Source: a phage. Taken from it: a DNA stretch of 64,000 nucleotides. The DNA lies in the NCBI GenBank assembly GCA_022979955.1, contig GCA_022979955.1_3642.1. One strand, given 5' to 3'. A model generated the notes under the pieces. It did not search any database and was not told the DNA's origin. It worked only from the letters and a program-made list of their open reading frames with translations. The position numbers and the translations under genes are program-made. This document shows, in pieces, positions 3,635 to 58,219 of this stretch (its first letter is position 1; the number at the start of each line of letters is the position of its first letter).

Positions 3635-3716
3635 AAATCATTGACACGCTGCAAAATTTAAGTAAACTAGGCACAAAAGGTGGGAATGTTTCCCGCCAAC
3701 ACGAAGGAAAAAGATC

Positions 3717-4121
3717 ATGAATAAGAACATACGCCGCATCATGAACGAACTGGCAAACGATGAAAAAATTATTGACATGCATTTAGTCAACATTTGCCGC
3801 CGTTGTGTAACATATAACAACCGCGCCGCAAAAGCGCGTGAGATGAACGCAAAAGGCACCTTAAAGCCATTCCAGGTGGTGGTAAAGGCCATTAAAGATG
3901 TAACTAATACGGCAAACCAGGTACAGGGGAACACCAACGAGAGTACCAATATTGATCCGGCTTACATCATGAAACGGATCCGGACCTGCAAGAACAAAGA
4001 GCAAGTGTATAATGTCATAGACTGGTTGGATTCTATGGGCGATGTGGTTTACAATAGGTTTTCTGCAGCTATCGAGATCCAGCTTGACAGGTTGGACGGT
4101 AAAGTACTGAAAACTTACTAA
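3717..4121 (+). CDS. hypothetical protein
   Basis: ORF track; promoter TTGACA at 3646 and leader hairpin upstream. Confidence 0.55.
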   Translation: MNKNIRRIMNELANDEKIIDMHLVNICRRCVTYNNRAAKAREMNAKGTLKPFQVVVKAIKDVTNTANQVQGNTNESTNIDPAYIMKRIRTCKNKEQVYNVIDWLDSMGDVVYNRFSAAIEIQLDRLDGKVLKTY

Positions 4122-4122
4122 G

Positions 4123-4168
4123 TTTATTTTTAGATGGCCTTGACTCCAGGGTCATCAATAAAGTAAAC
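4123..4168 (+). promoter_or_regulatory. conserved about 45-bp palindromic cassette (TTTATTTTTAGATGGCC-TTGACTCCAG-GGxCATCAATAAAGTAAAC), copy 1
   Basis: near-identical copies at 4744 and 8456; inverted repeat GATGGCC/GGCCATC encloses a -35-like TTGACT; A/T tract upstream. Confidence 0.45.
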
Positions 4169-4202
4169 TAATCTCAACTAAGCGAAAAAGGGGGGCTTTA
4201 AG

Positions 4203-4322
4203 ATGAGCACTACACGCCAATACACAAAGGTAACTATTATCGTTTGCGTTGTCGGTTACATCCTGGCGCAAATGTTAATGAGTAGCGCTAACAGTTTTGC
4301 AAAATTTTTCTTAAATTTTTAA
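4203..4322 (+). CDS. small hydrophobic peptide ORF (39 aa)
   Basis: AAGGGGGG SD; single predicted TM-like stretch; below track cut-off. Confidence 0.25.
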   Translation: MSTTRQYTKVTIIVCVVGYILAQMLMSSANSFAKFFLNF

Positions 4323-4401
4323 TTGACAAACTAACTTAGATCGATATACTTAAACACGTAAACGGGAAAACTTCCCAGAGCACACAAAAGGAGAAAACAC
4401 C

Positions 4402-4743
4402 ATGACTACTATGACCGCCGCAGAAAAAGCTATGCAGATCGCCGCGCTGAAAAAACAGATCGCAGACCTTGAGAATAAGATCGATAACTTTGAAATCGAC
4501 GAGGACAAGTACGACGAAAACTATGATGAATGGTTAGACGAGATCTACGGCGAAATCATGATCGGAAACATTTCTTTTCTTCCGTCGCGTATCCTCAAGG
4601 AGCTAGATCCTATCGCTTACCGCTGCGGATTTAGCGACTACATCGACAGCCTGGATATTGAGGACGATGAAGAATACCAGGAATTACAGACAGAGCTCGA
4701 AGAAGTGAAAGAAGAGCTTGCAGAACTGGAAGAAAACGAGTAA
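4402..4743 (+). CDS. hypothetical highly acidic protein
   Basis: ORF track; AAAAGGAGAAAACACC-ATG; D/E-rich with coiled-coil-like ends. Confidence 0.55.
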   Translation: MTTMTAAEKAMQIAALKKQIADLENKIDNFEIDEDKYDENYDEWLDEIYGEIMIGNISFLPSRILKELDPIAYRCGFSDYIDSLDIEDDEEYQELQTELEEVKEELAELEENE

Positions 4744-4790
4744 ATTTATTTTTAGATGGCCTTGACTTCAGGGCCATCAATAAAGTAAAC
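4744..4790 (+). promoter_or_regulatory. conserved palindromic cassette, copy 2
   Basis: matches 4123..4168 apart from 2 substitutions. Confidence 0.45.
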
Positions 4791-4832
4791 TTTAGACTGT
4801 TAACACTTAACCAATACAGAGGAGTTAAAACC

Positions 4833-5078
4833 ATGGCCGCACTAATTACCAAATATTATGCCCCTACCAACACCAAAAGCGCCCGTATCATGGTAAAAGG
4901 CTTCGGACGTAAAAAGGTTTACACCTGGGATTATGCCTTAGACACGGAAGACAACTACACCAACGCGATGACCGATTTTATTAATGATCTGAACACGCGG
5001 ATCTTAACAAATTATAAAATTACCGACATTGCTTATATAGGTGAAGGCGGGATCTGTTTTGTAGGCATTGTGAAATAG
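4833..5078 (+). CDS. hypothetical protein
   Basis: ORF track; CAGAGGAG SD. Confidence 0.5.
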   Translation: MAALITKYYAPTNTKSARIMVKGFGRKKVYTWDYALDTEDNYTNAMTDFINDLNTRILTNYKITDIAYIGEGGICFVGIVK

Positions 5079-5152
5079 TTATTTTTTCGGTGGTCCTGGC
5101 TGCAGGGCCATCTATAAAGATAATTTATTAACACAATGAAAGGAGAAAGTAC

Positions 5153-5506
5153 ATGATCAGCGGGGCAAGTTTTATTATTGGCGCTATTGCTACGGCTTTA
5201 ATTGTAAACAAGATCCAATCTAAAAACGAAAAAGAGAGCAACGCGCTCACAGAATACCCATTTTGGGTATTCAACGACAATGAAGACTACATTATCAAGT
5301 ACAAGAATGAGAAGGGCGACCAGGTAACACCGCGACCGATCCCAGCTTACAAGATGCAAGAAACACTATACCGCCTAAAGGCTGGAGGCGCAAAAATCGT
5401 AGACTTTTGGGGATATGATTGCAAGGATCAGGAGGTTATAAAACGGCGTATCCGGGCGATTCAGGCAAATATTGAAGTTAGCAAGGGGGGAATATATGAA
5501 GATTAA
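5153..5506 (+). CDS. hypothetical protein with N-terminal TM segment
   Basis: ORF track; AAAGGAGAAAG SD; preceded by variant of the palindromic cassette at about 5085..5135. Confidence 0.5.
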   Translation: MISGASFIIGAIATALIVNKIQSKNEKESNALTEYPFWVFNDNEDYIIKYKNEKGDQVTPRPIPAYKMQETLYRLKAGGAKIVDFWGYDCKDQEVIKRRIRAIQANIEVSKGGIYED

Positions 5507-5693
5507 TTTTGAGAAGATTGTAAAGCGATCTCATGATTCCGAAGAGTTGCCGGAACGCCGCCAGCGCAACAATAAATTGAATAAGCCAAAAAGATTTGGG
5601 AAGATCTGGCGGAATCATTATGATCGTAAATTGCCGGGCCTACTTTTGGAACGTGAACGACAGGCGGAACGATACCGCCACAAAGGCAAATAA
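5496..5693 (+). CDS. hypothetical basic protein
   Basis: ORF 5472..5693 trimmed to ATG with AAGGGGGG SD; K/R-rich. Confidence 0.4.
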   Translation: MKINFEKIVKRSHDSEELPERRQRNNKLNKPKRFGKIWRNHYDRKLPGLLLERERQAERYRHKGK

Positions 5694-5699
5694 CAACCA

Positions 5700-5728
5700 A
5701 CGCCCCGCCATTGTGCGGGGCTTTTTAT
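5700..5728 (+). terminator. rho-independent terminator
   Basis: CGCCCCGCC-loop-GCGGGGC hairpin followed by TTTTTATTT. Confidence 0.55.
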
Positions 5729-5851
5729 TTCTATCATACGAATAGCGCCCCTGGTTGGCCCTGTAAGCGCCAAAAAGGCCCCCACCTATGCAATCGCCCC
5801 CTTTAACCTGAAAACATCGCCCAGGGCCGTTTTATGGCGTTAAAAATATCA

Positions 5852-5879
5852 TTGACATCGTCAACAGGTTAGCTATACT
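5852..5879 (+). promoter_or_regulatory. sigma70-like promoter TTGACA-N16-TATACT
   Basis: hexamers read directly; upstream A/T tract. Confidence 0.5.
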
Positions 5880-5911
5880 AACCACATCAAAGAGAGGAAG
5901 GAGTAAACGCC

Positions 5912-6172
5912 ATGCGTAAATTAAAAAATTTTGATAAAGTTGATGTTATCCTGAATAATTTTTACTACTGCAACAACAAGGCTATTTGGTGGCGTGATAG
6001 TTCCACCGATAAAGTCAAGGCGCGCTTTCTCCAAGGGCACTGGCAAGGCCGCCCAGTGATTAAAATCATGGGGCAATTGGTAGCGTTTAAAAATTGCCGC
6101 CGTGTTGATGACGTTGAGGAGATTTTAAACATTTTGCGCCACAATAATTTAAAAAATAGTGTTGACAAGTAA
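5912..6172 (+). CDS. hypothetical protein
   Basis: ORF track; GAGGAAGGAG SD. Confidence 0.5.
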   Translation: MRKLKNFDKVDVILNNFYYCNNKAIWWRDSSTDKVKARFLQGHWQGRPVIKIMGQLVAFKNCRRVDDVEEILNILRHNNLKNSVDK

Positions 6173-6189
6173 ATCTCAATAAGTATACT
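6162..6189 (+). promoter_or_regulatory. sigma70-like promoter TTGACA-N16-TATACT
   Basis: followed by leader hairpin GGCGGGAAAACTTCCCGCC then SD. Confidence 0.5.
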
Positions 6190-6246
6190 TAAACACACAG
6201 GCGGGAAAACTTCCCGCCACTAACAAAGAAAATAGGAGAAAATATC

Positions 6247-6870
6247 ATGACCACCGTTAACATTACCGCAGGTTACAATTTATCTTTCGACGTGCTGACC
6301 GACGAACAAAAAGAAAAAGCTATTGAAATGGTCCGCGAAAGAGAAGAACACAGTGGGGATAACTTTTTTGCAGAAAGTGTAATTGAATACTATAAAGAAT
6401 ATGTTTTTCCAGAGTACGGGCTTGAAGATACAAAAGTACATTGGTCAGGCTTTTGGTGCCAGGGTGACGGCGCGTCAATCAGTGCGGAAAACGTGGATTT
6501 AGAAAAATTCTTGCGTAAAGTCAAGTCTCTGACTAAATTCCGCTCAATTCGTCGCTTGTTCGGCACAATGCACGATGGCGAACTATCCGCAAGTGTTGAG
6601 CGTGATCCATATAGCCGCTATAGTCACGAAAACACTGTAAGCGGGTACATCGATACTACATGGCTAGACCTGACCGCCAAACAAGAAAATAAAGTGGAAG
6701 ATCTGGAAGAGCTGATCACCGAGACGGTACGGGAGCTATCCCGCAAGGTTTACGTAGACCTGGAGGAGGCCTATCTAGAACAGTTCACTACCGAAAACCT
6801 GATCGGCCTTATTGAGGCCAATGATTGGCGGTTTGATGTAGATGAATATGGAGAGATGAGTTTTTCATAA
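6247..6870 (+). CDS. hypothetical acidic protein (207 aa)
   Basis: ORF track; AATAGGAGAAAATATC-ATG. Confidence 0.6.
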   Translation: MTTVNITAGYNLSFDVLTDEQKEKAIEMVREREEHSGDNFFAESVIEYYKEYVFPEYGLEDTKVHWSGFWCQGDGASISAENVDLEKFLRKVKSLTKFRSIRRLFGTMHDGELSASVERDPYSRYSHENTVSGYIDTTWLDLTAKQENKVEDLEELITETVRELSRKVYVDLEEAYLEQFTTENLIGLIEANDWRFDVDEYGEMSFS

Positions 6871-6959
6871 ATAAAGTGTTGCAATAATCTAAAAACCTGC
6901 TATATTAAAACTCAAGGGGCAAGACGTTTGCCCCCACACAAAACAAAGAGGAAAACATC

Positions 6960-7340
6960 ATGAAAAACACTACTAAAGCTATTGACACCGTCATGTTTAA
7001 CCTAGTTACCTTTCGCGAGGATATGAAAGATCTTCCACGTGAAACAGTGTGCGATCACATTGAAAACTATCGCAAACTAATCAAAGAGTTGCCTTTAAAA
7101 CGTGATCAGTATGCGGCTAACGCCATGCTTAATGCCATGATCAAAAAGATGATCCAGTGTGATTTAACTCTGGCCTATGACTATGCGGGTGGTCGTTTTG
7201 CAGTATACAATCAGCCCGTGCCCGGTATGGGCACCACCGAAGAATTGCACGCGTTAAATCTGAAGCAAGATGTATGGGATAACATGCCCCGCGTGGTGGT
7301 GTGGGCAGAAAGCGGAAAGATTTACGGCGATAATTTTTAA
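6960..7340 (+). CDS. hypothetical protein
   Basis: ORF track; AAAGAGGAAAACATC-ATG. Confidence 0.55.
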   Translation: MKNTTKAIDTVMFNLVTFREDMKDLPRETVCDHIENYRKLIKELPLKRDQYAANAMLNAMIKKMIQCDLTLAYDYAGGRFAVYNQPVPGMGTTEELHALNLKQDVWDNMPRVVVWAESGKIYGDNF

Positions 7341-7404
7341 TCAGGTAACAGGCGGCATATTTGCCGCCTTATTGTTAAACAGAACTGCAAAAGAGGTACA
7401 TAGA

Positions 7405-7776
7405 ATGGAATTTATTATTTTGGCTGTAGTAGTTGCCTTGTTCAACGCCTGGATCGCTGGCAAGATAGGTAGATCCGCTTTTCTATGGTTTGTTATATCT
7501 ATTTTCCTGGGAGTGGTTGCAACTATTGTATTGGTTATCCTTGCAATTGTTGACAAGGGCGATAATAGAAAGGGTAAAGTGTTTTCCGACCTGTATGACG
7601 CACAAACGTTTGTCAACGCCTATTATAGTGATCTTCCAGTCTCCCTACGCTGCAGCCTGGCACAACAGGTTTTTGATGAGGCTAAAACCAGAGACCAAGC
7701 CCATGAGATATGTTTAACTGAGGCGGATCGCCTATTTGAGAGGAATAGAAAATATGTGGACCAGCCGTTTAAATAA
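7405..7776 (+). CDS. hypothetical membrane protein (2 predicted TM)
   Basis: ORF 7270..7776 trimmed to ATG at 7405 with AAGAGG SD. Confidence 0.5.
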   Translation: MEFIILAVVVALFNAWIAGKIGRSAFLWFVISIFLGVVATIVLVILAIVDKGDNRKGKVFSDLYDAQTFVNAYYSDLPVSLRCSLAQQVFDEAKTRDQAHEICLTEADRLFERNRKYVDQPFK

Positions 7777-7999
7777 CGCCACGTTAATTAATCCCTTTAG
7801 TGAAGATTTGAAGCCAGCCGCCTGGCGTGACGGATTCAATAACGAACGCTTTATTTTCAGGCCTGATCTTGAGGAATTTTATAACAATGGATCGAACAAC
7901 AGCGGAGATAATTTTTCTTGTGATGTGCGTGGTGATGGTACTCCTGGGGGCCATTGTAAACCACGTCACTACTACCAGGAGGAAAGGGGGAGACGATGA
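7754..7999 (+). CDS. hypothetical protein (uncertain; alternative overlapping micro-ORFs at about 7887 and 7996 encode TM peptides)
   Basis: ORF track trimmed to ATG with GAGAGG SD; low-complexity C-terminus. Confidence 0.25.
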   Translation: MWTSRLNNATLINPFSEDLKPAAWRDGFNNERFIFRPDLEEFYNNGSNNSGDNFSCDVRGDGTPGGHCKPRHYYQEERGRR

Positions 8000-8107
8000 C
8001 AACCAAGGATAAGCCCCGCACCGATAAGGTGCGCCAGGTTATGGTATGGCTTGAGATCATCGCCCTTGAAATATTGTTAGGGGTAGGAATGTACTTTATT
8101 GCTATAA

Positions 8108-8137
8108 GTAACTGATAACGCCCCCGATCATGGGGGC
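8108..8137 (+). terminator. rho-independent terminator
   Basis: GCCCCCGATCATGGGGGC hairpin followed by T-rich run. Confidence 0.5.
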
Positions 8138-8254
8138 TTAACTTTTTCAAAAAATTTTTCTTCCAGGGTGTTGCAATCTGGTCCGCAATATGGATAATAA
8201 CAATCAACGGGGAAACATCCCCACCAACACAAAAACCAGAAAGGAGAAACAAAA

Positions 8255-8455
8255 ATGAGCAACAATATCCGCGTTATTAACTTCAAAAAAGAAGAAAAAA
8301 TTGCCGTGCTGATTGACGGTCAAGAAATATTCAAGGGGTATTATGAAGATCATCAAACGGCGATTAGTATCACTCGCGTGATTGGTTACCATAATTTTTA
8401 CCCTCAAGGCGCTGAGGCAGCAGTAAAACGAATTAAAGAGATTGTAGGCCTGTAA
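8255..8455 (+). CDS. hypothetical protein
   Basis: ORF track; AAAGGAGAAACAAAA-ATG; promoter TTGCAA..GATAAT upstream. Confidence 0.5.
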   Translation: MSNNIRVINFKKEEKIAVLIDGQEIFKGYYEDHQTAISITRVIGYHNFYPQGAEAAVKRIKEIVGL

Positions 8456-8503
8456 AATTTATTTTTAGATGGCCTTGACTCCAGGGCCATCAATAAAGTA
8501 AAT
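8456..8503 (+). promoter_or_regulatory. conserved palindromic cassette, copy 3
   Basis: identical core to copy 2. Confidence 0.45.
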
Positions 8504-8546
8504 TTAAACCCTGTTAAAATAATCAGTGCAAAAAGGAGTAATGATC

Positions 8547-8846: not shown

Positions 8847-9069
8847 TTCCGGCAAATGATGCAAAATAAGGCCCCTAGCAGGGCCTGCAGCGATATAATC
8901 ACATAAAGGCTATGCGGTTGCATGTCCTTTATTATTTTAGCGTTACAGCGGCCCCAAGGCGCTTAAAAAAATTTTTAAAGAAGTACTTGCATCAAGCCCT
9001 ACAATATGGATAATAGGACGTGTCAGGGGGAGGCCCCAATCATTAACCGGATAGATAGGAGTTAAAACC

Positions 9070-9650: not shown

Positions 9651-9725
9651 CATGACCATATAAAACTGTAGTATATAAATCAAAGGGGGCAACAAGCCCC
9701 ACCAACCACAAAGAGGATAAAAATC

Positions 9726-9905: not shown

Positions 9906-9996
9906 AATAGTTTGACAACAATTACAAATCGGGTAGAATGTATTTCGTAGGGGAGACAAGCGCCCCATTAAACGCAACAGGAAGAGGATAAACACC

Positions 9997-54824: not shown

Positions 54825-54895
54825 ACCAGTAAAAACTTAAATATCTGTACTATAAGGATTCGTATGTTTTATGTTCGCTCTGGAACAGAGGTCAG

Positions 54896-54981
54896 TAACT
54901 GTCCGTGATACGGACACTACTGTCCGTCACGCGGACACATCTGCCCGTAATACGGACACTAACTGTCCGTGATACGGACAC
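54896..54981. repeat. four tandem 21-22 bp iterons, each with core GTCCGT-N3/4-ACGGACAC
   Basis: 54896..54917, 54918..54938, 54939..54959, 54960..54981 read directly; copies 1 and 4 identical. Confidence 0.7.
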
Positions 54982-57361: not shown

Positions 57362-57436
57362 GCCCTGTTAGCTTAGTGGATAAAGCAGCGGCCTTCTAAG
57401 CCGTTGACACTGGTTCGAGTCCAGTACGGGGTGCCA
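57362..57436 (+). tRNA. tRNA-Arg (anticodon UCU)
   Basis: hand-folded cloverleaf: acceptor GCCCTGT/ACGGGGT, anticodon loop CTTCTAA, T-loop TTCGAGT, 3' CCA encoded. Confidence 0.7.
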
Positions 57437-57440
57437 AATT

Positions 57441-57527
57441 GGGGAGTTATCCCGTAGAGGTAGCGGTGTAGACTGTAAATCTATTGTCATTGCGACTCGG
57501 GTGGTTCGACTCCACCACTCCCCACCA
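57441..57527 (+). tRNA. tRNA-Tyr (anticodon GUA), type II long variable arm
   Basis: acceptor GGGGAGT/ACTCCCC, anticodon loop CTGTAAA, T-arm GGTGG-TTCGACT-CCACC, CCA encoded. Confidence 0.7.
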
Positions 57528-57641
57528 AATTTATATTTTTAGATGCGTAAATAATACAGATAATGGCATTGATATTTATCGTCGTTTATACTAGTCACTA
57601 ACTGCTCGAAAATCAGTGTCATTATCAGTATAATTTATAAA

Positions 57642-57732
57642 GGAGGGTAGGGAGCAATGGTGCTCAAGCGGTCTTGAAAACCGTCCCATTGAGGATGACT
57701 CGATGATGGTTCGATTCCATTACTCTCCGCCA
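57642..57732 (+). tRNA. tRNA-Ser (anticodon UGA), type II
   Basis: acceptor GGAGGGT/ACTCTCC, anticodon loop CTTGAAA, long variable arm, T-loop TTCGATT, CCA encoded. Confidence 0.65.
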
Positions 57733-57830
57733 CATTGTTGACCTTGTAATTAAGCGAAAGCCGGAAGCAGAACCGGATTATCAAATGTTACAGTCGTCAT
57801 CGCCGACTAGCAACATGGTCAACATACTGA

Positions 57831-57927
57831 GCTAGGTAAGCCCTTTGGCAAGGGCGAGGATTTTTAATCCTGAAAATAGACGAGGTAGTCGTTGAATACA
57901 TAGGTGGTTCGATTCCACCGCCTAGCA
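57831..57927 (+). tRNA. atypical tRNA-like gene (anticodon loop TTTTTAA, nominal Lys-UUU) with about 30-nt extra arm
   Basis: acceptor GCTAGGT/GCCTAGC, D-arm GCCC-TTTGGCAA-GGGC, T-arm GGTGG-TTCGATT-CCACC; 4-bp anticodon stem; no encoded CCA. Confidence 0.35.
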
Positions 57928-57933
57928 CCTTTT

Positions 57934-58009
57934 GCTGATGTAGCACAATTGGCAGTGCAATTGATTTGTAATCAATAGGTTGCAGGTTCAAGTCCTGCCA
58001 TCAGCACCA
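57934..58009 (+). tRNA. tRNA-Thr (anticodon UGU)
   Basis: acceptor GCTGATG/CATCAGC, anticodon stem ATTGA/TCAAT with loop TTTGTAA, T-arm GCAGG-TTCAAGT-CCTGC, CCA encoded. Confidence 0.75.
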
Positions 58010-58010
58010 T

Positions 58011-58085
58011 GGCCCTGTAGCTGGAAGGTTCAAGCAAGCGACTCATAATCGCCAGATGGTGGTTCAATTCCACCCAGGGCCACCA
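58011..58085 (+). tRNA. tRNA with CAU anticodon (Met, or Ile if lysidine-modified)
   Basis: acceptor GGCCCTG/CAGGGCC, anticodon loop CTCATAA, T-arm GGTGG-TTCAATT-CCACC, CCA encoded. Confidence 0.65.
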
Positions 58086-58096
58086 AATTATAAATA

Positions 58097-58163
58097 CTCC
58101 GCGTAGCTCAGCTTGGTAGAGCGCCTGATTTGGGATCAGGAGGTCGAGTGTTCGAATCACTCC
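58097..58163 (+). tRNA. tRNA-Pro (anticodon UGG)
   Basis: acceptor CTCCGCG/CGTGGAG, anticodon stem CCTGA/TCAGG with loop TTTGGGA, T-loop TTCGAAT, CCA encoded. Confidence 0.7.
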
Positions 58164-58219
58164 GTGGAGACCACCTTTAGTTATACTTTAAACATATACA
58201 AACGAAAGGAACCTTTAAA

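Follow-up and report, generated by a model that had tools for sequence, protein, structure and literature searches.

Repeated cassettes in the early region

In this study, we analyzed a stretch of 64,000 nucleotides (nt) of phage DNA (GenBank assembly GCA_022979955.1, contig GCA_022979955.1_3642.1), referred to below as the window, and focused on a short cassette that recurs between genes of its + strand. The region is matched at 94-95% identity and over its full length by rV5-like coliphages (genus Vequintavirus, myoviruses of the Vequintavirinae with genomes of about 136-137 kilobases (kb)), and the cassettes are surrounded by an early-region block of small + strand open reading frames (ORFs) that have no assigned function and are each preceded by a strong Shine-Dalgarno sequence. 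Four cassettes (C1, C2, C4 and C3 in genome order) were found, all of them on the + strand and inside 4.4 kb. The 5' end of each coincides with the upstream ORF's stop codon or lies no more than 2 nt from it, and 27-42 nt separate its 3' end from the next start codon. The original prediction, made from the letters of the window, had described near-identical copies at 4123, 4744 and 8456 plus a diverged variant, and had read them as promoters with a palindromic operator for a dimeric regulator. Our repeat search agreed on the copies, with starts within about 2 nt. As to their nature, our modeling points on balance to another identity: the cassettes are probably, if by no means certainly, intercistronic RNA hairpins of the type of the early ribonuclease III (RNase III) sites of phage T7, that is, a known kind of element that would have been unnoticed so far in this phage group.

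All four copies belong to one 51-nt repeat family, with 4742-4792 as the reference and 4120-4170 (92%), 8455-8505 (96%) and the diverged 5076-5126 (73%) as further members. The 24-nt core GATGGCCTTGACTCCAGGGCCATC occurred at three sites, all on the + strand (4133-4156 and 4755-4778 with one mismatch each, and 8468-8491 exactly), where 0 were expected from 100 dinucleotide shuffles. No fifth cassette was found in the window with a covariance model trained on the cassettes, and neither this model nor the T7-trained model described below detected one in a 95%-identical genome when its further 72.6 kb were searched; the four cassettes are the full genome-wide set. In the phage database, the cassette was limited to Vequintavirus (121 records, with ∼3 copies per genome detectable by blastn). 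None of 5,426 complete E. coli genomes contained it, and an origin from a host repeat was rejected on the basis of these zero matches. Rfam held no family for it and returned sub-threshold noise only. A loose degenerate scan of IMG/VR yielded ∼120 loci, nearly all of which were chance hairpins, and Vequintavirus was represented by two contigs only.

RNA structure and its conservation

On the + strand, the four copies share a common fold in which a lower and an upper stem of 10 base pairs (bp) each are separated by a 2x3-nt internal loop and a tetraloop closes the top (Table 1). In the lower stem the 5' T-run is paired with AAAGUAAA, a conserved U.G included, and the upper stem is formed by GAUGGCCUUG/CAGGGCCAUC, with one U.G and a 4-nt loop. 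Folding energies ranged from -20.9 to -23.6 kcal/mol on the + strand (z -5.0 to -6.5) and from -8 to -16 kcal/mol on the - strand. The inverted repeat GATGGCC/GGCCATC noticed earlier is indeed present, but its arms are longer than described, comprising a 10-bp stem plus a second 10-bp flank stem. Hexamers resembling -35 and -10 elements are also there, but TTGACT is not enclosed by the palindrome, as its TTG makes up the uppermost part of the stem and its ACT falls in the loop.

To examine conservation of the pairing, we used 27 distinct sequences (orthologues and paralogues) from the window, nine GenBank genomes and two IMG/VR contigs. A wider set was not obtainable, because protein-based searches for distant relatives with two flanking ORFs showed mosaic gene content around them and not a conserved locus. 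In the 27 sequences, standard pairs filled 97.8% of the pair cells on the + strand vs 85.9% on the - strand. The upper helix was 100% paired, with four one-sided changes, each of which passed through G.U. In the lower helix four pairs were altered on both sides, for example by A-U/U-A swaps between paralogues and by a U-A > U.G > C-G series among the C4 orthologues. When partners were slid by one to three columns, only 34-57% of cells were paired, and none of 500 shuffles reached the observed value. The + strand folded better in every one of the 27 sequences (mean -23.5 vs -14.4 kcal/mol). While the stems were fixed, the terminal loop was hypervariable (ACUC, ACUU, ACGC, ACAC, AUAAC, GCUG, GUAG, GUAA and GUUG).

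This pattern fits a sense-strand RNA structure and not a symmetric DNA operator. The operator reading is unfit because substitutions in the arms break the symmetry of the DNA, yet keep the RNA pairs through G.U; the compensatory changes in the flank helix, the hypervariable loop/spacer and the whole structure of C4, which is retained with CTGGCT in place of the -35-like hexamer, argue in the same direction. In addition, none of the ten flanking ORFs carries a DNA-binding Pfam domain. Thus, an operator around the -35-like element, as first proposed, is unlikely.

Similarity to T7 early RNase III sites

A covariance model was built from the T7 early RNase III sites R0.3, R0.5, R1, R1.1 and R1.3 alone. 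When both strands of the window (128 kb) were searched with filters off, its top four hits were the four cassettes, which were matched over the full length with 24.1-26.6 bits (E 9e-5 to 5e-4), whereas the fifth hit reached 13.2 bits. Held-out late sites of T7 scored 47.4 (R4.7), 44.1 (R18.5), 28.4 (R6.5) and 14.1 bits (R3.8), and R13 was missed; the cassettes score like true sites because their values fall within this range. Orthologous cassettes of six other genomes obtained 21-31.6 bits. Background hits stayed at or below 13.8 bits in unrelated viral contigs totaling 880 kb (searched with default speed filters), whose loci were the chance hairpins of the loose IMG/VR scan and each contained a hairpin resembling the upper stem, and at or below 11 bits in the other 72.6 kb of the 95%-identical genome.

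The resemblance extends to details of the fold. When folded, T7 R1 shows an upper stem of 9 bp and a tetraloop above a 5' UA / 3' AAU internal loop, and in R0.3, R0.5 and R1.1 the 3' strand of the loop is UAU and the 5' strand ends in C (..C/UAU). We also compared the cassettes with recognition rules for E. coli RNase III. Pertzev and Nicholson (PMC1540722) give at least 11 bp-equivalents from the cut to the tetraloop, no G-C or C-G at position 2 of the proximal box, and UA/UG as a favorable distal box; further rules were taken from PMC3867540. The box positions in the cassettes were set by analogy with R1.1. In C1-C3, the 10 bp plus a non-canonical A.A pair, which T7 R1 has likewise, make 11 positions, proximal-box position 2 is A-U, and the upper stem shows U.G at bp 8 and U-A at bp 9, at the place equivalent to that of the UA/UG distal box in R1.1. 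In C4, the non-canonical pair is C.U, as in R1.1, its proximal-box position 2 is G.U, and bp 8 is C-G.

Operon context

Predicted promoters (3641, 4323 and 8171) and terminator-like sites (5702, 7350 and 8120, the last two being the other such sites reported in the region by the terminator scan) define three predicted operons: P3641-ORF-C1-ORF, P4323-ORF-C2-ORF-C4-ORF-ORF-terminator and P8171-ORF-C3-ORFs. Every cassette is therefore predicted to be intercistronic. All of them lie downstream of promoters with 11/12 or 10/12 matches, with no terminator between promoter and cassette. The last ORF of the C2/C4 operon is a homologue of T7 gene 1.1, which the annotation of phage Murica also records. 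In T7, gene 1.1 stands directly 3' of R1.1, an RNase III site. As judged by homology, this gene shows exchange between T7-like early regions and the rV5-like early region.

Table 1. Cassettes and neighboring features of the window; promoters, operons and cuts are predictions
Feature	Position	Strand	Stems, motif or match	Loops	Context	Predicted RNase III-type cut
Cassette C1	4121-4169	+	lower stem 4121-4130/4160-4169; upper stem 4133-4142/4147-4156, with one G.U found in this genome only	internal 4131-4132 (UA) + 4157-4159 (AAU); terminal 4143-4146 (ACUC)	first base is last base of stop codon of ORF 3717-4121; next ATG 4203	after U4159
Cassette C2	4743-4791	+	lower stem 4743-4752/4782-4791; upper stem 4755-4764/4769-4778	internal 4753-4754 + 4779-4781 (AAU); terminal 4765-4768 (ACUU)	overlaps stop codon of ORF 4402-4743; next ATG 4833	after U4781
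Cassette C4 (diverged)	5077-5125	+	lower stem 5077-5086/5116-5125; upper stem 5089-5098/5103-5112; -35-like hexamer gone (CTGGCT), two-tier hairpin intact	internal UC + UAU (5113-5115); terminal GCUG	overlaps stop codon of ORF 4833-5078; next ATG 5153	after U5115
Cassette C3	8456-8504	+	lower stem 8456-8465/8495-8504; upper stem 8468-8477/8482-8491	internal 8466-8467 + 8492-8494 (AAU); terminal 8478-8481 (ACUC)	immediately 3' of stop codon of ORF 8255-8455; next ATG 8547	after U8494
Sigma-70-type promoter P3641	3641-3668	+	TTGACA-16-TAAACT, strong; 5' hairpin 3679-3697		P194 in rV5; predicted start of transcript through ORF 3717-4121 into C1	
Sigma-70-type promoter P4323	4323-4350	+	TTGACA-16-TATACT, 11/12, strong		P192 in rV5; predicted operon ORF4402 - C2 - ORF4833 - C4 - ORF5153 - ORF5496	
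5' hairpin	4364-4376	+	GGGAAAACUUCCC		downstream of P4323	
T7 gene 1.1 homologue	5496-5693	+	Pfam PF08200, 42.3 bits (cut-off 21), E 1e-10		last ORF of C2/C4 operon	
Intrinsic-terminator-like hairpin + T-run	5702-5731	+			end of C2/C4 operon	
Sigma-70-type promoter P8171	8171-8198	+	TTGCAA-16-GATAAT; 5' hairpin 8209-8222		predicted start of transcript ORF8255 - C3 - ORF8547	

Seven of the ten strong sigma-70-type early promoters carry a GC-rich hairpin ∼10-14 nt past the -10 element, such as GGGAAAACUUCCC or GGCGGGAAAACUUCCCGCC (3679-3697, 4364-4376, 6200-6218, 6916-6934, 8209-8222, 9686-9700 and 9950-9966). These hairpins would lie at the extreme 5' end of the transcript and may be mRNA-stabilizing 5' stem-loops. 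A similar design of promoter and 5' hairpin was observed in Justusliebigvirus KKE7M (L136 5722-5745, 6484-6505 and 6743-6765). Two of the units in the window, 4323-4376 and 6162-6215, share 74% identity across 54 nt (repeat family D8); by this similarity, D8 is a second family of repeated, putatively regulatory cassettes in the region. The left crossover of the insertion in KKE7M described below took place at a Justusliebigvirus promoter homologous to the D8 units.

Proposed processing and points against it

Given the structure, strand specificity, covariation-based conservation, match to the T7 model and position in predicted operons observed here, we infer transcript read-through into the cassettes and cutting by RNase III along the following lines. 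Host RNA polymerase would initiate at 3641, 4323 and 8171, traverse the first gene and enter the cassette, where the transcript would form a helix equivalent to ∼22 bp (AU-rich lower stem, 2x3-nt internal loop, GC-rich 10-bp upper stem and tetraloop). RNase III would then bind the helix and, because of the internal loop, make only one cut, on the 3' side just past the 3-nt loop strand (AAU| or UAU|). No RNase III gene is annotated in rV5, which makes the host enzyme the candidate. After the cut, the upstream message would close a few bases past its stop codon in a hairpin that blocks 3' exonucleases, for which we computed -15 to -18 kcal/mol, and the downstream cistron would turn into a separate mRNA.

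Several points weigh against this reading. The reciprocal search was weak, as the best hit of the cassette model in the T7 early region was R1, with 11.4 bits and an E-value of 2.1. Independent covariation events are few, and many of them come from the single C4 lineage. The T7 cuts of Dunn and Studier (1983), reported to lie at 890, 1468, 3138, 5887 and 6448, each directly 3' of the 3-nt loop strand, could not be confirmed in the T7 GenBank records, which list no RNase III sites among the features shown. Proximal-box position 3 is G-C and not the preferred A-U, though C-G occupies it in T7 R1. The 2-amino group of a G.U pair such as that at position 2 of C4 is described as an antideterminant in PMC1540722, and by analogy C4 may be bound but left uncut by RNase III, or may be a poor substrate. 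The -10 context of hairpin-less Justusliebigvirus promoters matches the 3' arm of the cassette exactly, so that part of the sequence conservation of the cassette may serve transcription initiation. In phage Gotham, a 5-nt deletion in C1 abolishes the upper stem (L002 655-690), and in phage C9, C3 is truncated and lacks the 3' lower arm (L126 9857-9913); single copies are dispensable, since these two have decayed. Finally, nothing relevant was found in the literature on Vequintavirus transcriptomics or on any link of these phages to RNase III.

It should be noted that the two kinds of signal could coexist. In this tentative extension, which we hold with low confidence, the cassette is a bifunctional cistron boundary, and the same 50 bp would act as a sigma-70 promoter in the DNA and as a T7-type RNase III hairpin in RNA derived from upstream. 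The UP-like T-run would be paired with the -10 region, with the -35 element at the top of the stem, so that transcripts reading through would be cleaved, and end in a capping 3' hairpin, at the very position where a new message can begin. The cassette and its upstream gene would travel as a self-contained expression module, as from Vequintavirinae to Stephanstirmvirinae.

Alternative explanations

That the cassette is primarily a sigma-70 promoter of the downstream gene, optionally with the operator dismissed above and with the hairpin as a secondary feature, appears unlikely to us. The elements of such a promoter would be the UP-like T-run, TTGACT, an 18-nt spacer and TAAACT/TAAATT. C1-C3 match at 9/12 positions (TTGACT-18-TAAACT) with an allowed spacer, TTGAC is conserved across all C1-C3 orthologues, and PhagePromoter calls a promoter in the annotation of Gotham. 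The hexamers first taken for a promoter are real, but 9/12 with an 18-nt spacer is the level of chance, at which 16 kb should contain ∼35 matches of this kind. Real promoters nearby have 10-11/12 matches, 16-17-nt spacers and mostly a GC-rich 5' hairpin, whereas the cassettes of this genome have no 5' hairpin, and the cassette is missing from the stringent promoter list of the rV5 authors. C4 keeps the full hairpin but reads CTGGCT-17-GATAAT, with no TGn, and the compensatory changes by which the 'UP' and '-10' regions are paired cannot be explained by promoter function. On the other hand, a TTGCAA-16-TAAACT promoter of Justusliebigvirus UAB_1 that has no hairpin carries AATAAAGTAAACT, the 3' arm of the cassette, unchanged as its -10 context, and the arm is also similar to the native muut promoter and to P3641. 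In KKE7M, the cassette occupies the place of a former promoter -10, 11 nt ahead of a 5' hairpin as in normal promoters, and all other long intergenic gaps of the region contain a promoter. Because AATAAAGTAAACT recurs in the hairpin-less promoter of a related phage, weak overlapping promoter activity is possible, and the promoter-likeness of the cassette may be ancestral.

The cassettes might also be sense-strand RNA elements other than RNase III substrates, either a passive barrier to 3' exonucleases after cuts by RNase E in the AU-rich flanks or a site for an RNA-binding protein of phage or host that regulates translation or stability. The evidence on structure and covariation applies equally to this explanation, and the possible antideterminant in C4 (PMC1540722) would suit it, but it leaves unexplained the two-tier geometry, the conserved U-ending 3-nt loop strand, the UA/UG positions and the selective match by the model of T7 RNase III sites. 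We consider it distinctly unlikely as a whole. The AU-rich flanks of the cassettes resemble the sequence preferred by RNase E, which would speak for the exonuclease barrier.

A third possibility is that the copies are kept mainly as recombination linkers, that is, as portable homology for the gain, loss and exchange of modules, with any role in RNA or as a promoter being incidental. Recombination between copies, which had been raised as one explanation of their near-identity, was borne out by three genomes. Phages magaca and ECP26 and one IMG/VR contig (L079) each contain a single hybrid cassette with the left flank of C1 and the right flank of C2, and the intervening 622 bp, which hold a 39-amino acid (aa) ORF, promoter P4323 and a 113-aa ORF, are precisely deleted. 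In addition, a promoter-gene-cassette module with 95.5% identity (P4323-like promoter, 5' hairpin, 113-aa ORF and cassette) was transferred into KKE7M, a member of the Stephanstirmvirinae whose relatives are without it, or have a different module, at this site. Its left junction is in the promoter, and its right junction is in the 3' arm of the cassette, where the arm matches the native -10. Judging from such junctions, the cassettes, as ∼50-bp direct repeats, are demonstrably used as crossover points. However, crossovers between any 50-bp direct repeats are expected in these phages in the absence of selection, the strand-specific G.U and compensatory changes are left unexplained, C4 has diverged in sequence yet kept its fold, and the copies number only four and are confined to 4.4 kb. 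Recombination as the main reason for their maintenance is thus very unlikely in our view. A separate rearrangement was seen in rV5_ev146 (LR699804; L128 4940-4990), in which C1 and its upstream gene are deleted and the 5' hairpin of P3641 is joined to the middle of the 39-aa ORF.

Finally, we see hardly any chance that the hairpin is an intrinsic terminator or attenuator of the upstream gene, forming a terminator-promoter unit like the promoter-early stem-loop (PeSL) elements of T4-like phages: it is stable, stands immediately 3' of a stop codon and is labeled 'terminator' in the Murica record (NC_041871), and PeSL stem-loops do terminate (PMC2839356), but the reading was rejected because there is no U-tract (the GC-rich stem is followed by AAUAAAGUAAAC, and the T-run lies upstream and not downstream of the hairpin), and the cassettes are missing both from our terminator scan, which reported 5702, 7350 and 8120, and from the ARNold/MFOLD listing of the rV5 paper. 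An 'anti-termination' protein annotated in bov10K2 was dropped from consideration, as it had no Pfam support.

Comparison with known systems

If the cassettes are RNase III sites, their closest counterparts would be the T7 early sites, especially R1. In both phages, a family of hairpins lies between the cistrons of early operons (predicted ones in the window) transcribed by host RNA polymerase, and has two tiers, with a lower stem rich in AU and a GC-rich upper stem of 9-10 bp on either side of a small asymmetric internal loop, plus a loop of 4-5 nt. Sites of the T7 type span about two helical turns (∼20-22 bp), as do the 10 + 10 bp and 2x3 loop of all four cassettes. R1 shares the 5' UA / 3' AAU loop of C1-C3; R0.3, R0.5 and R1.1 share the UAU of C4; and U.G and U-A are found at bp 8 and 9 of R1.1 too. 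The cassettes also have a gene 1.1 homologue nearby. By contrast, the cassette is carried by an unrelated 137-kb myovirus (Vequintavirinae), its 10-bp lower stem exceeds those of the T7 sites in length and regularity, and its internal loop is smaller than those of R0.3, R0.5 and R1.1. The stem sequences can be aligned over short motifs only, the reciprocal model match is not significant, the cassette overlaps a sigma-70-like hexamer pair, and RNase III cleavage of the cassettes is a prediction. An apparent likeness of the stem arms to T7 R1 with its arms exchanged was set aside and given no weight.

The REP/BIME elements (repetitive extragenic palindromes and bacterial interspersed mosaic elements) of E. 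coli are likewise repeated imperfect palindromes between cistrons that are read as RNA and form a 3' hairpin on the upstream message. The cassette differs in being phage-specific, with no match in the 5,426 E. coli genomes, and in having two tiers with an internal loop and four copies. As regards PeSLs (Arbiol 2010, PMC2839356; Comeau 2014, PMC4122927), the two systems have in common short, conserved and repeated intergenic cassettes in a plastic early region rich in small ORFs, a sigma-70-like promoter and a stem-loop directly 3' of the upstream stop codon, crossovers between copies that delete or insert gene modules, and the passage of modules between phages; for PeSLs, a role as portable homology in such exchanges has been proposed. 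In the layout described for a T4-like phage, a terminator stem-loop with G/C runs is placed upstream, followed by an AT-rich region and a near-consensus early promoter (PMC2839356). In our cassettes, by contrast, the promoter-like hexamers fully overlap with the hairpin, which lacks a U-tract and contains an internal loop of the RNase III type; the promoter match is 9/12 instead of near-consensus, four copies stand against dozens, and the phage is not T4-like. The ordinary promoters of the window with their downstream 5' hairpins represent a further, distinct arrangement.

Other observations

A terminator-like hairpin at 8887-8947 (AAAGGCUAUGCGGUUGCAUGUCCUUUAUUAUUUU; t177 in rV5) was the fifth-best hit of the T7-trained model, with 13 bits (15-18 bits in relatives). 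It has the AAGG...CCUUUAU.AUU motif of T7 sites and coincides with a synteny breakpoint among relatives (8859/8860). The motif TGGTAAAATA, for which the rV5 paper suggested a late-promoter role, stands beside cassette-like -10 sequences in early-region spacers of UAB_1 (L138 1195-1235) and C9 (L126 9895-9913).

Elsewhere in the window, a unit of ∼57-65 nt (ATCT.TTTTTC.TTTC...GGATTTTCTG) occurs in three copies at 2002-2183, with spacings of 65 and 73 nt and no long ORFs, and could represent iterons or another non-coding element. A 28-nt unit, each with a small palindrome GTCCGTGATACGGAC, is present in three close copies at 54890-54981. Seven tRNA genes (Arg, Tyr, Ser, Thr, Met and Pro) are clustered at 57362-58173, among which the call at 57831-57929 is odd, with 99 nt and a 4-base anticodon. 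In the database, ∼17-22 UNVERIFIED records (MG0656xx, 'Campylobacter phage ...', C. jejuni) are 94-95% identical to Vequintavirus or Justusliebigvirus of E. coli; on this basis, either their host label is wrong or the preparations were contaminated, probably.

Implications

The precise deletion of modules and their transfer across subfamilies provide a concrete view of the reshuffling of small early genes among large myoviruses. rV5-like phages find wide use as candidates for therapy and biocontrol, and the cassettes could serve as compact insulators or processing sites in engineering. If the interpretation of the cassettes as T7-type RNase III hairpins is true, the GenBank labels 'promoter' (Gotham) and 'terminator' (Murica) would need correcting, and host RNase III would shape early expression in a second, unrelated lineage of coliphages by means of the RNA architecture of T7.

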